Numbered from the stretch's first letter, positions 27,518-63,907 are shown. The stretch: 64,000 nucleotides of DNA from Negaprion brevirostris (GCA_030324005.1 JARDVH010000025.1:120095670-120159669), one strand, 5' to 3'. Made by a program: numbers and translations. The notes: generated from the letters alone by a model not told the origin.

Positions 27518-27832
27518 CTGCGCAAATAACAGATGCAGTCTGGCCAGATCTGCAGTTGTTTTGTTCCAAGGGGCTCATTTCACATTCCAAAAGAGTAGAT
27601 TCTGTCCCATTGCATTGAACGTCATCAAACAAGAAAGGACCTGGCGCTAGTCCGAAGTGATCACCCCCAGGAGCTGATCGAGCCGTTCCACATGCTAATT
27701 GCCTACATACAACAGTTGCATCAAGCACATCCCAATGATCATCGCAGACTGCTCTCCAGGAATTGTTATAATAAGTTTCCACTCTTCCGGAACAAAAATG
27801 TGTGCCATTTGTCAACCGTATTGGAATCTCAT
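27518..27832 (-). CDS. SRCR exon, type A, unit 7 (last intact exon seen)
   Basis: 315 nt cttttag/GTAAAG; DEIPIRLTNG..WRAVCDDHWD..TASVICA, 8 Cys. Confidence 0.93.
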
Positions 27833-29073
27833 CTAAAAGACATGACAACGGATAAGGTAAATTATTGACCATCATCCACTGAAGGGCTGAATTCCTAACA
27901 CAAAATCAACCCAGGTTTTAATAAAGGAAGAATCGCATAGCACGTGGTGTTCAGCTGAAAGGTCATCAACTTAAAATGTGAATTGAAAATTGTTATTTCT
28001 TTACTGGTGTGGTGTCAGAAAATACATGCAAAATGACAGATATATAATGTTGTTAATATTTTATGGATCAGTGCGTTTTATAACTTTTCAGATATATAAC
28101 ATAAGATATGGTTGAGTGACAGACATGAGCTGATGTCTTAATGGAGTGCTATATCTCTCTGATGTCACGTTTTTTGCAAGGAATGAACAGGATAAATTTA
28201 ATTTCCTGATTCTGATGATTTAGTTTCCTCATTAGACAATGTGCTTTCTTTAAGTATGGCTTCAATAACATTGAACAAAGCTCCAATATTGGGGTACATT
28301 TCTATCTGCAAATGACCTGTGCTCCGTCTAATGACCCCCTCCTCCCAACCCCAACCCCAACCCCAAAATGATTCTTGCAATTCGATTCATTTCGGATTAT
28401 TTAGAAATCCTGTAACACAAGGGCTATAGATTTAGAGCCACGCATTTCTGACGACTGCAATGGGCTTTGTGGAGAAACAGTTTTATTGAGTCAGGATGGA
28501 GTCTGTCCATTTCTGTCATAATGTGTTATTGAGTCCGTCTGAGAAGAAACAGAAATTTGGAGAAACCACGCTGCAGTGAATGAGATGCAACTCAAAATGT
28601 TCAGCGAAGTGTTCTATATAAAAGAGTTGATTTGTTGGGTATTCTGGGCTACTATTTTGTTGTAAACGATGCGAGTTCCTGCGGTAGAGGTACAGAAAAG
28701 TAAATTTGAGGATGTAACTCCTCTAATTACTTTTATATTCCAGTGTTAGGACTCGGAGGGATGGCACTGATTTCAACAGATTGCTAAATTCTAGGGCATT
28801 GATTCGAAAACAGCAACATTGATGGTAGAATATAAATCAATTAGGGATTCAAAGCCAGCGGCAGTAAGGATGGCCATTAATCTAATACCGATTGTCTGTA
28901 AAAGTAATCACCAAAATTAAATGGTTAATTGTTGACGTCTTGCTTGGTGGTCCTTCATGTAATTTCATGGTCACAATTTTAATGGTGCAGCAACAAAAAA
29001 GTAAATAAATTAAATGCAGTTATGGGGTTGGCAACAAATCAGGGAGTAAAGTATGGTCTGCGTTTTCACCTAC

Positions 29074-29379
29074 CTGTTACATATACATGCACGGAGTTGC
29101 TGCTTGTTGAATTGGAAATATGCCCTGATTTGCGTGTTTGGTAGTGACACGTGTAATCACCATCTTCCCTGGCACCCACTTCCAGGAGAGTGAAAGTAAT
29201 GCTCGCTGCTCCATTTGGAGCATATTGTGTGGCAATTGGATGAACTTCACCTGCTTTCATCAGAAGAAAGCTACTTCCTGCGTAAATGTTCAATGCTCTG
29301 CAGGTCATTCTTATTATTTCTCCTGCAATGAAGATACCAGATGTCCTTTCCAAAGATAAAATGAGCTGAAGCGGTTGAG
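29074..29379 (-). CDS. Ig-like exon, unit 6
   Basis: 306 nt ttatag/GTAGGT; AQPLQLILSLE..MTCRALNIYAGSSFLLMKAG..GDYTCHYQT..SVHVYVT. Confidence 0.93.
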
Positions 29380-30184
29380 CTATAAATAGAATCAAAGCCA
29401 ATAGAATGAAGACAAGCTTTTCGGAAGATAGAGCTGTATTTCACTCAGGAATTGAGAAGCACAGGTCCCAATCTCCAGTCAGTCTGTTCCCCATTGTGTA
29501 ACTTTCTGCGATGGACTTTAATTTATCATTAACTCGTACTTCACCAACAGTCCCTATCGGCACATGCAATTAATTAATAGTGATCAACAAATAGTTTAAC
29601 TGATGAGGCCATAGATTCAGATAATGGATTTGGCTGTTAATAATGTCTGAAACAGACTGACAGCTTTTTCAAGGATAAATCGGGCTAAAACTTAGATATA
29701 TTAATGGACTTCACAGCTCGGGGACAGGTTAAACGTTGTGTTTTTAGTTAGTTCTTTCCCCTAAAAATCGGGACATCCCTTCATTGCTATTCTGCCCAGG
29801 GAAGGATGTTAGTTCAGAAAATCTGGTGAAACTATTGCATTTTTCTATTATACAACTAAAATTGACAGTTTCAATTTTAGAAATGAAGAAAACATCACAT
29901 AAAGAGCCTTGGCAACACATTCAACCAACCCGCCACTCTACTCCCCTGCACATCCAGATAATTTCTCCACTTTCAAACAATTCATTGAATTATTTCTTTG
30001 GATCGCAGCTCTGTAACACTACCATGGGTCCAAAAACACCCTACGGACTGCAGCCTTTCAGCCTGGTAGCTCAGAATCACTTTCCGAAGAATCAAATTAG
30101 CATGAGCAAAAATTGCATACCTCGCCAGAAATGCAAATGTCTCATGCTTTATTCGCAACAAAATCAATGAAAAGCTCATAGTAC

Positions 30185-30499
30185 CTCTGCAAACGACAGA
30201 TGCATCTTCTTTGTGGTTGCAATTGTGCTGACCCAAGGCATTTTTTTGGCATTCCCATAGGTTTCCTTCTAACCCATTGCACTGAACATTATCAAGCCAG
30301 ATGTGCGAGTTCCCAGCCCCAAATTTGGCTTTTCCAGGGGCAGAGACAGCAAAGCCACAATGCAGCTGTGCACAGACAACCTCAGCGTCGGATATGTCCC
30401 AGTCATCATCACACACGGTTCCCCAGCTTCCGTTGTAATATACCTCCAATCTTCCTGAACAGTTATTTTCCCCATTCATCAGCCTGGCTTGAATTTGCT
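30185..30499 (-). CDS. SRCR exon, type B, unit 6
   Basis: 315 nt [32 protein letters not shown]. Confidence 0.95.
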
Positions 30500-61266: not shown

Positions 61267-61581
61267 CTGAGCAGACGACTGATGCGTCCTCACTGTGAGT
61301 GCAGTTGTGGTGTCCCAAAGGTTTCGACTGGCACTGCCACAAGTAAGATTCGGAACCTAGGCAATGGACTGAATCCAGCCAGATGGGTGAGGTGCCTTCC
61401 CCAAAATAGGAGTGCCCAGGGGCTGATTGTGCAAACCCACAGTTCAGCTCTGTGCAGACAGCTTCGGCGTCAGAGATGTCCCAACCATTATCACAGACTG
61501 TACCCCAGGCGTAATTGTGGTAGATTTCCACCCTTCCTGAGCAGGAACTGTCTCCGTTCACTAGTCTGGTTTGAAATGCTT
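61267..61581 (-). CDS. SRCR exon, type B, unit 1
   Basis: 315 nt AG/GT-bounded; [33 protein letters not shown], 8 Cys. Confidence 0.95.
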
Positions 61582-61739
61582 CTGAAGTGGGGAAAAAGTC
61601 ATACATTTATAAACTCTTCTTGGCACAGTTTTGTAAACTGTTGAAGAAACATAACTAAACGGATAGTAAACAAAAACAATGTAAGGCAACTATTTTAGAG
61701 GGAACTGGCGTGATGTTAATCTTTGGAAATGTTCAGATT

Positions 61740-62105
61740 GACGCATTATGTTATACCAATAACTACAGTTAAGACGATAGATCGGAGAAATTGAGACTGT
61801 TCTTAGATTTAAGACACCTAAGGCAAGATTCGATAGAGATTTTCCAAACCACGATGATGTCCAACAAGGTAGATAGGCAGAATATTTTCTCACTCGTAAA
61901 ATGATCAACAACAAGAGGATGCCGTAACACAGTACATATGAGAAACAAAGATAACATGAGAAAATTAAAAAAAATACATTTTCACACAATGACTGAATCC
62001 GGGTCTGGAATGCGTCAGCTGGAAGGTTGGCTGTGACAGATTCATTCGCGACTTTCAAACGGGCACAAAATGATTACTTGAATAAAGAAAGAAACGGGCT
62101 AGAGT
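61740..62105 (+). mobile_element. Old CR1 3' fragment
   Basis: Decayed LRGDLIE.FK / TRG / VWN motifs. Confidence 0.55.
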
Positions 62106-63592
62106 GATCGGGGATGGGGGCTGGGGAAGACNNNNNNNNNNNNNNNNNNNNNNNNNNNNNNNNNNNNNNNNNNNNNNNNNNNNNNNNNNNNNNNNNNNNN
62201 NNNNNNNNGGTGGGGGGCGACGGGAGGGGGCGTCGATGTTGGTGGGGCCGGGGTGGAAGTAGTGAAATGAGACGAATTCATGCTGCTCATTTTCAAATTC
62301 GGTGCAGAAAATTTGGACCGAATACCTTCCTTTACATCGTAACAATTATGCAATTTTGTGAGACAATTACAAAATATCGAGAGGTACAGCTATTCAGTGC
62401 ATTCCACCTATACAATTATTTGTTGCAAAAATTTAATTCATTGTTTTATACTTCTCTTCCTGGGATGACAATCTTTGACTCATGTGTGTGTTTATGGATA
62501 TCTATAATTTTCTGCATTGCGATGCATTTGAGACACTCTAGAAATATTTCAAATCGGAACTGAAAGTCGCACTCAGCACGGCTATCAACCACTCTGAATG
62601 GAAGGCGCAATGCATTGAATATGCAATTCAGCTATTCTACAAGTATTTGCCGGACCTGCACTTGCAAGCACATTTTTCTCCATTCAGTGACCTTCAAACC
62701 CTTCCCCACCTCCTCGGCCTAGCAGCCCCTTCGTCCTATTTTCTTTGTCTTTAACTTTGACCAAGGGTCATCCGGACTCGAAACGTTGCCTCTATTACCT
62801 CTCCACAGATGCGGTAAGACCTGCTGAGATTGCGCAGCAACTTCTGGTGGTGTTTGACCTTTCTTTCTGTCATTCTTTTGAACTGGCATGCAGCAATTTT
62901 TTATTGAAGACTCGCTAAGTCTCTTTAATATACTCAGTGGACAGATTTACAATTTCTTTGGTGTTCAAGAAAAAAATGTGTTATATATTTCCAACATGAC
63001 GGACCAATAACAAAACATGTGCATACACAAATAATTAACGATTTAGGCCCTCGGCAATATTCAGGGTTTATTGGAATCGCAATCAATTAGACTCGTAATC
63101 ACCAGCATCAGATACCCACTCAGAAAATCAACATTAATTCAAGGCATATTTTTTGACCTTTTAAGTTTTACAAAATAATTTTGCTTGAATGTGCAGTTGC
63201 TAAATCTGATAATATAGAGAGTAAAAGCTGAAATGTAGGACAATATAATATTAGGCTGGCTGCTCCCCATGAAGAATTATGTGGCAGTTGAATTAAACAT
63301 CAGTTTCGGAGAGTCTACCTTTACGCTTCATGTTGTTGCCTAAAGACTGTCCTCGATATGAGGGGGCAATATAGCGTCATGTCAATAATAATTTGGTTTA
63401 TTTACTTTAATGAAGTGAACTACTGAGCGGAGAACGATGAAAATGCCAACGTGTGCATGGAAATTATTAAGGCAATTCCCTGTAATTCGACTGCTGAAAT
63501 TCATAAGTTGCCTTCAAATAACTGGAATTAATACGTTCCAATAACGCAGGCCGAGAACACAACACCCTCAAGCATAAAAACAAAAACTATAC

Positions 63593-63907
63593 CTGAGCAA
63601 ATGGCAGATGCTGCATCTCCAGGGCTGCAGTTGTGCTCTCCAAGTGCGGTCTTTTGGCAATGCAATAAGTTCAACTCAGTTCCGCTGCACTCAATGTTAT
63701 TGAACCAAATGGAATCAGCTGCTGCTCCAAAGTGAGCATTAACAGGTGCCGATTTTGCCGGTCCACAACCCAACTGCTTGCATACAACATTCGCATCAAG
63801 TATGTCCCAGTTGTCATCACAGACTGCTCCCCAAGTCTGATTGTAGTAAAGCTCAACTCTCCCTGAGCATGCGTTTATACCTTTGAATAGTCGCAGTGGG
63901 ATCTGGT
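63593..63907 (-). CDS. SRCR (group B) exon, type A, unit 1
   Basis: cacttag acceptor / GTATAG donor; 315 nt phase 1-1; [32 protein letters not shown]..8 Cys. Confidence 0.95.

Follow-up and report, generated by a model that had tools for sequence, protein, structure and literature searches.

The question raised by this locus is what kind of protein is encoded by a long, regular run of SRCR and Ig exons in a shark, and to which known family of immune proteins it is closest. The run lies in a 64,000-nucleotide stretch of DNA from Negaprion brevirostris (GCA_030324005.1, JARDVH010000025.1:120095670-120159669), the whole of which is called the window below.

An array of 24 SRCR and Ig exons

The initial annotation described 19 consecutive exons in the order A, B, Ig six times and then A, three of them partly in N gaps, with roughly 1,950 aa of ectodomain. 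No strand was stated there; all 19 were found on the minus strand, from 63907 down to 27518 in the window, all in phase 1/1 with the frame open across the letters read; the three partly N exons are A4, I4 and A5 (the frame across the N run of I4 is not readable), and the nominal product is 1,973 aa. An AG acceptor is present at 19 of the 19 exons and a GT donor is visible at 18 (the 3' end of A4 is unread). The introns between array exons measure 0.8-4.4 kb. The exons are listed here from the highest coordinate down, with two decayed SRCR exons of the same strand.

63593..63907, minus: SRCR exon A1, 315 bp; five further array exons lie upstream, beyond 64000
61267..61581, minus: SRCR exon B1
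59718..60017, minus: LRC-type Ig exon I1 (predicted type, here and below), 300 bp
58086..58400, minus: SRCR exon A2; third cation-site residue lost
56421..56735, minus: SRCR exon B2; D-D-E cation site intact
54526..54831, minus: LRC-type Ig exon I2
52607..52921, minus: SRCR exon A3; D-D-E intact
48716..49030, minus: SRCR exon B3
47568..47873, minus: LRC-type Ig exon I3; domain used for fold prediction and comparison
45855..46113, minus: SRCR exon A4, coordinates of the part that was read; donor and 3' end unread
44626..44940, minus: SRCR exon B4; D-D-E intact
42769..43058, minus: LRC-type Ig exon I4, with part in Ns; 290 bp in the assembly vs 306 expected
40920..41234, minus: SRCR exon A5; middle unread
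36240..36554, minus: SRCR exon B5
34630..34935, minus: LRC-type Ig exon I5
33488..33796, minus: SRCR exon A6, 309 bp
30185..30499, minus: SRCR exon B6; D-D-E intact
29074..29379, minus: LRC-type Ig exon I6
27518..27832, minus: SRCR exon A7, last intact exon seen; good GT donor; read-through stops 14 codons on
17766..18080, minus: SRCR exon X1, decayed, with two frameshifts that compensate each other; probably left over from a separate gene
16907..17223, minus: SRCR exon X2, decayed and out of frame, 317 bp; probably left over from a separate gene

The suggestion that the array may run past base 64000 also proved correct because five more exons (Ig, B, A, A and A), all with AG/GT boundaries and in phase 1, lie upstream on the minus strand. 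The whole array comprises 24 same-strand exons encoding ∼2,495 aa in the order SRCR-SRCR-[SRCR-SRCR-Ig]x7-SRCR, or 17 SRCR and seven Ig domains, with no stop or frameshift across the read portions of all 24 exons. Pfam calls SRCR for both SRCR exons tested (E 3.5e-29 and 9.3e-33) and Ig-like for six of six Ig exons of the window. Because the units are only 45-74% identical within a type, read depth across B6-I6-A7 is flat, and a 4.7-kb DNA contig from a related organism holds the equivalents of B6-I6-A7 in the same order, a collapsed or invented assembly repeat is excluded. Further, pN was below pS in every one of the 35 within-type exon pairs tested, with a mean dN/dS of ∼0.21 for A, ∼0.12 for B and ∼0.36 for Ig exons (N-bearing exons left out), indicating purifying selection that, as the comparison is between old paralogues, reports on the past.

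Domains of the group B SRCR type have eight cysteines in standard spacing and one exon per domain. Consistent with this, each SRCR domain of the array occupies one phase 1/1 exon of 309-315 bp, and all eight cysteines are at the standard places in 14 of the 15 fully read domains, B0 having one displaced. In the tree, the A and B domains separate as two SRCR lineages (split support 100/100), and the alternating domains are only 43-65% alike; the best single-domain matches are CD163 domain 7 and DMBT1. In SRCR domains of the SALSA type, cation site 2 is an Asp-Asp-Glu triad (PMC7043408). When mapped by the residue spacing given in that source, so that binding is predicted only, the triad is exact in 7 of 15 readable domains, all three places hold D, E, N or Q in 11 of 15, and the site is lost in 4 of 15, including the degenerate B0, where a conserved cysteine position is missing as well. 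Ser/Thr linkers are absent: no linker exons lie between the domain exons here, and the domains abut in the basking-shark models described below. X1 and X2 sit 9-10 kb downstream of A7 and were rejected as a continuation of the 24-exon gene, being frameshifted and resembling N-terminal-type A domains; a further reason is that the X1 layout recurs without gaps in a related organism's contig, though the best match may come from the very sample that was assembled.

Predicted LRC-type Ig domains in an LRC-syntenic interval

The best sequence matches of the array Ig domains are FcalphaRI, LILRB1/2, PIR-B and KIR. With the predicted fold of I3 (pLDDT 93), the top 10 Foldseek matches were all LRC proteins. 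Similarly, VIA-align against 48,161 solved chains gave a top 10 made up entirely of LRC chains (Z 12.9-14.5), with PECAM-1 (12.1), FcgammaRI (11.5) and FcR/FCRL chains (10.9-11.5) below them; the margin over PECAM-1 is 2.4 for the first match and under 1 for the tenth. By these sequence matches and the predicted fold, the array Ig domains are predicted to be of the LRC type. An FCRL-type identity is contradicted, as FcR and FCRL chains rank under all ten LRC chains and the locus markers are those of the LRC. A whole-protein model of the relative from Stegostoma (687 aa) had a pLDDT of 43, giving no domain packing.

As to the locus, the array lies inside an SRCR/Ig cluster of 1.4 Mb, flanked on one side by LENG8 at 119.35 Mb (E 3e-32) and a tweety gene at 119.30 Mb and on the other by PRPF31 at 122.20 Mb. 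It is therefore located in the LRC-syntenic interval between LENG8 and PRPF31 (2.9 Mb, of which ∼0.8 Mb was read), and 38 of 61 genome-wide Ig-exon matches fall within 120.04-121.44 Mb. The opossum LRC is likewise bracketed by these two gene groups, as described in PMC6557307. The markers to which the LRC is linked are TTYH1/LENG8 on the one hand and the RPS9-CNOT3-PRPF31 group on the other. The single tweety exon tested scored higher to TTYH2 than to TTYH1, Not3/CNOT3 matches fall on other scaffolds, and a ribosomal S4 family search gave no match and is uninformative. The LRC-type Ig domains and the LRC-syntenic position, both absent from the initial annotation, are the informative point of the locus.

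The array thus resembles the LRC family (LILR, PIR, FcalphaRI, KIR, NKp46, LAIR1, OSCAR, CHIR and the secreted A1BG) in Ig sequence and predicted fold, in having one domain per phase-1 exon, and in its cluster position from LENG8/tweety to PRPF31. The Arg-bearing membrane segments of the family are matched by the array's neighbours, although the shark segments have the Arg without the Asn of NxxR, NxxR in the membrane segment or else an ITIM tail being the mark of the family. Growth by exon shuffling, set out for the LRC in PMC6557307, is a further likeness. However, described LRC members have an Ig-only ectodomain, whereas 17 of the 24 domains here are SRCR, and a membrane anchor was not found for the array gene in the scans described below. 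Because there are 17 SRCR to seven Ig domains, the gene is an LRC-derived mosaic rather than a classical LRC member.

SRCR/Ig mosaics in other vertebrates

DMBT1/SALSA (gp340) also has a long run of eight-cysteine SRCR domains; the array keeps the calcium-site residues in about half of its own, and likely shares secretion. In contrast, DMBT1/SALSA has Ser/Thr-rich linkers and C-terminal CUB and ZP domains, whereas the array has no linkers and its basking-shark models contain neither CUB nor ZP; the interleaved Ig domains, the alternating A and B domains and the LRC-syntenic locus set the array further apart. CD163, WC1, SSc5D and CD5L have the same group-B SRCR type, but CD163 and WC1 have an SRCR-only ectodomain, whereas seven Ig exons are interleaved here, and none of these four is known to have interleaved Ig domains. 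Mouse FCRLS has FCRL-type Ig domains and a single SRCR and is located in the Fc-receptor locus. It is a soluble mosaic of Ig domains and group-B SRCR (PMC4016189), a mix as in the array but without a repeat.

Two basking-shark RefSeq models with consecutive accessions and contigs of equal length, XP_078390386.1 and XP_078390387.1, read AAABIABIA and BIABIABIABIA, and together they are likely the orthologue of the 24-exon array. Of the 15 basking-shark SRCRs, seven group with the array unit at the corresponding position with starred support and one more does so at 99/68; another pairs with a neighbouring paralogue instead of the expected unit (90/87), and six have no clear partner, in a tree whose bootstrap had not converged. 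As witnesses they are weak: the locus is divided between two models with spurious ends and insertions, and the upstream model runs off an internal exon; the downstream one stops at the A7 equivalent, without a transmembrane segment.

On a wider scale, SRCR and Ig domains are mixed in 94 of 367 fetched proteins (a set seeded with the array's Ig and its relatives, and no census) from sharks, rays, bowfin, teleosts, coelacanth and caecilian, all of them unstudied models, and the pairing itself is not unique to the array. The longest tandem SRCR-SRCR-Ig run among the 94 is three, compared with seven here, and most are irregular; triplets occur three times each in basking-shark, catshark and caecilian models, and rays and catshark have models of mosaics that reach 2,000-3,200 aa. 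Two Logan proteins (1,469 and 1,409 aa) carry SRCR-Ig and Ig-SRCR junctions on contigs of 4,733 and 4,592 bases, which barely exceed the coding length and so are intron-free, supporting SRCR-Ig splicing in relatives.

These results agree with the earlier statements that SRCR+Ig models exist in fish (they are found in sharks, rays and bony fish), that pipelines would label the array DMBT1-like (relatives are named DMBT1-like or CD163-like) and that the architecture, a large SRCR/Ig mosaic, is unlike that of mammalian group-B SRCR proteins. The idea of a distinct protein class has to be given up, the array being instead part of a broad family of shuffled SRCR/Ig mosaics in which triplets recur, and its strict periodicity carries less weight because tandem cassette duplication explains it. 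Overall, the array is likely one giant member of a little-described shark version of the LRC: a literature search outside most subscription journals found no description of SRCR/LRC-Ig mosaics or of a shark LRC cluster, and a 2021 Immunogenetics paper reportedly describes an LRC-like gene in elephant shark.

A secreted protein or a receptor

Secreted and membrane proteins alike require a leader exon. Over the 60 kb upstream, neither peptide searches nor pattern scans turned up a credible one; a five-residue leader match was rejected because it falls in unrelated sequence. In the read minus-strand sequence from 27,500 down through an 80-kb flank, hydrophobicity and two profile scans revealed no credible transmembrane exon, and several N stretches downstream of A7 could hide one. 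A weak Arg-Leu-Cys-Leu match near 24,030 was rejected as a membrane exon, as it falls within a TG repeat and has no acceptor. Neither a leader-like nor a transmembrane exon was found between the array exons, and the neighbour's membrane exon, searched against the whole genome, matched only itself, so that this search was without power. The term receptor, used for the array in the initial annotation, is therefore not supported.

We put at about an even chance the reading that the array encodes a shark LRC protein that is secreted and binds microbes multivalently and in a calcium-dependent manner. The 24 exons would be spliced into one mRNA for a chain of ∼2,500 residues with 17 SRCR and seven LRC-type Ig domains, and we infer secretion because no transmembrane exon was found. 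No transcript of the array was seen; the 5 runs listed for this species included none of RNA, which weighs neither way. Binding of bacteria by the SRCR part of SSc5D (PMC5061727) offers a precedent. On the model of SALSA and SSc5D, the SRCR domains would grip microbial surfaces multivalently through calcium-bridged acidic sites, binding polyanionic ligands, and the Ig domains may be docking sites for LRC-type host ligands (immunoglobulin, MHC class I or collagen) or rigid spacers, so that the protein would act as an agglutinin or opsonin. The array would have grown as a phase-1 A-B-Ig cassette was duplicated in tandem, and the unit-wise pairing suggests that this mostly predates the split from the basking-shark lineage.

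Of the alternatives, the one that survives best, though we consider it doubtful, is a single gene for a type I membrane activating receptor, likened to activating LILRs, GPVI, OSCAR and FcalphaRI, in which A7 would be joined to an unread or diverged Arg transmembrane exon and signalling would proceed through an FcRgamma-type ITAM adaptor. An Arg-bearing transmembrane segment ends every complete A/B-subfamily model and the head-to-head neighbour, and Arg at the start of the segment with a short tail is found in Heptranchias, Chiloscyllium, Stegostoma, Rhincodon and Cetorhinus models and in three neighbouring exons here. Such segments resemble the FcRgamma-coupling type described in PMC6557307 and PMC4536121; further, A7 has a good splice donor and a TCR-zeta/FcRgamma-family membrane exon is present in this genome. 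However, the missing Asn of NxxR, the lack of a membrane exon in the read sequence from 27,500 through the 80-kb flank and its lack in the basking-shark model all argue against a receptor.

It is improbable that two or more shorter tandem genes, split for example at A3/B3, pose as one array. RefSeq breaks the basking-shark locus into two models at this point, the A3-B3 intron (3.6 kb) is among the longest here, relatives with complete models have only 1-2 Ig domains and, leader exons being short, a scan that finds none anywhere could miss an internal one; but neither basking-shark half has a leader or anchor at the break, phase 1 is kept at all junctions, the scans found no transmembrane or leader-like exon within the array, and mosaics of comparable size are modelled in rays and catshark. 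Least probable of all is a recently silenced or decaying gene whose frame survives but whose product is not made: the missing leader and terminal exons, the degenerate B0 and the two decayed SRCR exons downstream would fit it, but the read part of the 24 exons (the I4 N run is unreadable) has no stop or frameshift, the splice sites are intact, the purifying signal is strong, albeit one of past selection, and the exon order is the same in the relative's DNA.

The preferred reading of a secreted microbe-binding protein can be extended, more tentatively and with the balance against it, to the whole cluster. Sharks would keep a megabase-scale LRC in the mammalian position, assembled from SRCR and LRC-type Ig exons that shuffle freely. 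Mosaics of the SRCR/Ig kind would go back to the LRC of the jawed-vertebrate ancestor, survive in the coelacanth, bowfin and caecilian models, and have been lost on the line leading to mammals. This gene would be the extreme case, a secreted molecule of 2,500 residues that bridges microbes, bound by its SRCR heads, to antibody or MHC, bound by its LRC-type Ig domains. It would serve as a soluble opsonin resembling an Fc receptor, in animals that according to reports have neither LRC nor Fc receptors. For sharks, PMC4016189 reports no C2-only LRC homologues, and PMC6557307 presents the time of origin of the LRC and the ligands of its first members as an open question. A shark LRC-syntenic cluster with Arg-type membrane exons and 'DMBT1-like' mosaics would date the complex to the base of the jawed vertebrates and would tie the LRC to pattern recognition of the scavenger type. 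With its three domains, the A-B-Ig unit is of a size suited to expression.

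The SRCR/Ig exon array and its ends

Six-frame motif and ORF scans showed every SRCR and Ig motif in question to lie on the minus strand of the window (G000:C25:120,095,670-120,159,669; C25 is contig JARDVH010000025.1, in a 2.69-Gb genome). The initial annotation had described 19 exons as A, B, Ig six times and then A, A and B being two SRCR types, and with boundaries placed at AG/GT sites this was borne out as a phase-1 run, A1 B1 I1 ... A6 B6 I6 A7, in which A4, I4, and A5 are the three partly in N gaps. All 19 acceptors and 18 of the 19 donors are readable, and no stop codon was found in any read part of the 19 exons. 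The nominal length is 1,973 aa, compared with the ~1,950 aa of ectodomain claimed, and Pfam agreed with the domain calls (SRCR in both exons submitted, Ig in all six array exons submitted). The suspected continuation past base 64000 was also found, as five further exons upstream, giving a full array of SRCR-SRCR-[A-B-Ig]x7-A with 24 exons and ~2,495 aa.

Exons of the array and decayed exons downstream of A7
Window 63907 to 27518, minus: 13 SRCR exons (309-315 bp) and 6 Ig exons (300-306 bp nominal), phase 1/1
C25 120,161,036, minus: upstream Ig exon, AG/GT, phase 1
C25 120,166,780, minus: upstream degenerate B exon (B0), AG/GT, phase 1
C25 120,169,411; 120,174,134; 120,174,764, minus: three upstream A-type exons, AG/GT, phase 1
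Window 18,080-17,766, minus: decayed SRCR exon
Window 17,223-16,907, minus: decayed SRCR exon

B0 (G000:C25:120,166,780-120,166,466, in L001; L002:~1,130-1,440 region) is missing the cysteine following the conserved Trp and has an extra one near its end, the total still being even, at eight; judged from its cysteines, it may have an altered disulfide.

Scans of the read sequence found no transmembrane exon downstream of the array, and no leader exon candidate was identified upstream in the neighboring stretches scanned. Read-through of A7 reaches a stop after 14 codons, with two poly(A)-like hexamers ~1.1 kb further as weak evidence. In the region of the decayed exons, the assembly is matched by contigs of the best DNA holder, possibly the assembly's own sample. 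Because no anchor was seen in two assemblies, we give secretion of the product about an even chance. An Arg-anchored, FcRgamma-coupled receptor is possible, albeit less probable; Arg opens the hydrophobic stretch in three neighboring plus-strand membrane exons and in complete shark models, and these segments resemble the FcRgamma-coupling NxxR type, as described in excerpts of PMC6557307 and PMC4536121, but without the Asn.

Shark relatives, splicing, and selection

The Ig profile matched five proteins among 8,000 candidates, all five from sharks. Two basking-shark models with consecutive accessions, XP_078390386.1 and XP_078390387.1, read AAABIABIA and BIABIABIABIA, jointly SRCR-SRCR-[A-B-Ig]x6-A; they are predictions with junk ends and inserts, and their domains are 59-77% identical to those of the array, which points to a genome likely from a shark other than the basking shark. 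An SRCR tree (57 rows, A5 omitted, bootstrap without convergence) split A from B at 100/100. In it, 7 of 15 basking-shark SRCRs paired with the co-linear unit with starred support and one more at 99/68; one paired with a neighboring paralogue (90/87), and six were without a clear partner. That the array is several genes, as the division between two models might suggest, is improbable.

A full HMMER search returned 1,128 proteins at E<=0.001. Among 367 proteins retrieved, 94 mixed SRCR with array-type Ig, and 11 carried at least two tandem SRCR-SRCR-Ig units, with a maximum of three. Species names were assigned to a subset of 25 representatives or relatives. The SRCR+Ig models suggested earlier for fish do exist, in sharks and rays (the cartilaginous fish Pristis, Narcine, Leucoraja, Scyliorhinus, Heptranchias, Heterodontus, Chiloscyllium, Hemiscyllium, and Stegostoma), Amia, salmonids, further teleosts, and Latimeria, with Geotrypetes in addition. 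P0079, a caecilian (Geotrypetes) model, has three tandem SRCR-SRCR-Ig units, which suggests that the periodicity is old or of multiple origin. Both SRCR-Ig and Ig-SRCR junctions occur in two Logan proteins, of 1,469 and 1,409 aa, whose contigs (4,733 and 4,592 bases, respectively) are too short for introns; from this lack of intron room, the contigs are most likely assembled mRNA and would be evidence of SRCR-Ig splicing for paralogues rather than for the array gene itself.

Identity within type was 49-66% for A (21 pairs), 60-74% for B (15 pairs), and 45-60% for Ig (15 pairs), and between A and B 43-65%. Once exons containing N and the three A exons upstream had been excluded, each of the 35 within-type pairs had pN below pS, and mean dN/dS was near 0.21 (A), 0.12 (B), and 0.36 (Ig). 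Read depth across B6-I6-A7 was flat in three of three runs, and these exons lie in the same order on a single 4,705-base contig of organism C, a related organism. The array is real and under selection; a silent gene, of the kind the decayed exons might suggest, is very unlikely.

Ig domain type and proposed function

Against PDB sequences, the top seven matches of I3 were FcalphaRI-type, LILRB1/2, and PIR-B chains, with KIRs next; a 43-exon Ig profile ranked PIR-B first, FCRL5 second, and LILRB1 next, by whole-chain scores that favor long chains. With the I3 AlphaFold model (pLDDT 93.4), the top ten Foldseek rows were all leukocyte receptor complex (LRC) proteins, as were the top ten of 48,161 chains in VIA-align (LILRB4, PIR-B, CHIR-AB1, LILRB1, KIR3DL1, FcalphaRI, LAIR1, and OSCAR; Z 12.9-14.5, rmsd 1.6-2.4), below which came the non-LRC PECAM-1 (Z 12.1) and FcgammaRI (Z 11.5). 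Sequence matches and predicted fold together identify the array Ig as LRC type.

In SALSA/DMBT1, Asp-Asp-Glu at site 2 holds a cation bridging anionic ligands, and loss of the triad abolishes binding (PMC7043408); bacteria are bound by the SRCRs of SSc5D (PMC5061727). Across the 15 readable array SRCRs, the site is exact in seven, conservative in four, and lost in four. From this retention and both analogies, we infer that the product would be a multivalent, calcium-dependent microbe binder, whose Ig domains might serve as spacers or, in the manner of LRC domains, bind host proteins.

The locus and its neighbors

SRCR and Ig domains, and the LRC, are already known. An LRC-like gene has reportedly been described from elephant shark in a 2021 paper; the locus claim may thus be partly published already. 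Gene models with the periodic architecture are already public under DMBT1-like names, the label foreseen for it, and the interest of the array lies mainly in LRC origins. Literature searches found neither an SRCR/LRC-Ig mosaic family nor a shark LRC cluster in the main texts of the publications found; a mosaic of Ig and SRCR domains is already known in mouse FCRLS, C2-only LRC homologues were not found in sharks according to passages of PMC4016189, the source for both, and sharks go unmentioned in excerpts of PMC10855680.

Genome-wide, 38 of 61 I3 matches lie on C25 at 120.04-121.44 Mb, interspersed with SRCR exons in several arrangements.

Flanks of the C25 cluster
119.30 Mb: tweety gene, one flank
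119.35 Mb: LENG8, same flank as the tweety gene
122.20 Mb: PRPF31, opposite flank

The opossum LRC is flanked by Ttyh1-Leng8-Leng9 and Rps9...Prpf31-Tfpt (PMC6557307), and the human LILR region contains TTYH1 and LENG8 (PMC8562567). The locus is LRC-syntenic, though the match is imperfect: the tested tweety exon scored higher with TTYH2 than with TTYH1, Not3 matches lie on C177 and C121, away from C25, and RPS9 was not detected.

Neighboring features (G000:C25 unless stated)
Window 1557-1862, 8064-8162, L013:2856-3149, and L013:3555-3860, plus: three LRC-type Ig exons, then a transmembrane exon that bears Arg and has a very short tail
120,234,866-120,253,734, plus (L008-L010): paralogue head-to-head with the array; five A-type SRCRs, one Ig, one SRCR, Arg-type transmembrane exon
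119,933,118-119,982,400, plus (L039-L034): two Ig exon sets of another kind
121.13-121.19 Mb, minus, and 121.32-121.37 Mb, plus (L061-L073): two similar mosaic genes (SRCR x2-3, Ig, Ig, SRCR, Ig...); a plain membrane exon at 121,367,094 belongs to one of them
120.73-120.77 Mb, plus (L077-L080): LRC-type Ig exons in tandem, several truncated or broken
Window 18,630-18,770 and 26,220-26,340: very high-copy short repeats, depth >100,000
Window near 8,975-9,300, 10,680-11,060, 13,200-15,350, and 39,980-40,380: LINE-like frames with reverse-transcriptase-like fragments, by eye

By its exons, the first set is a candidate Ig-only activating LRC receptor, of the kind not found in sharks by PMC4016189. 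The membrane segment of P0173, a basking-shark model on the contig of the array orthologue, closely resembles that of the head-to-head paralogue. P0074, a Heterodontus model named automatically from DM43, an opossum A1BG-like protein, is a shark receptor with three Ig domains and an Arg-type membrane segment. The L039-L034 Ig set tested matched FCRL5 best, no single stretch passing alone; the shark LRC interval may thus contain Fc-receptor-like genes, which, if true, is relevant to a shared origin of both loci. The L061-L073 pair is likely an inverted duplication, and the broken L077-L080 exons look as they might in a birth-and-death cluster. The short repeats and LINE-like frames are ordinary retroelement debris.
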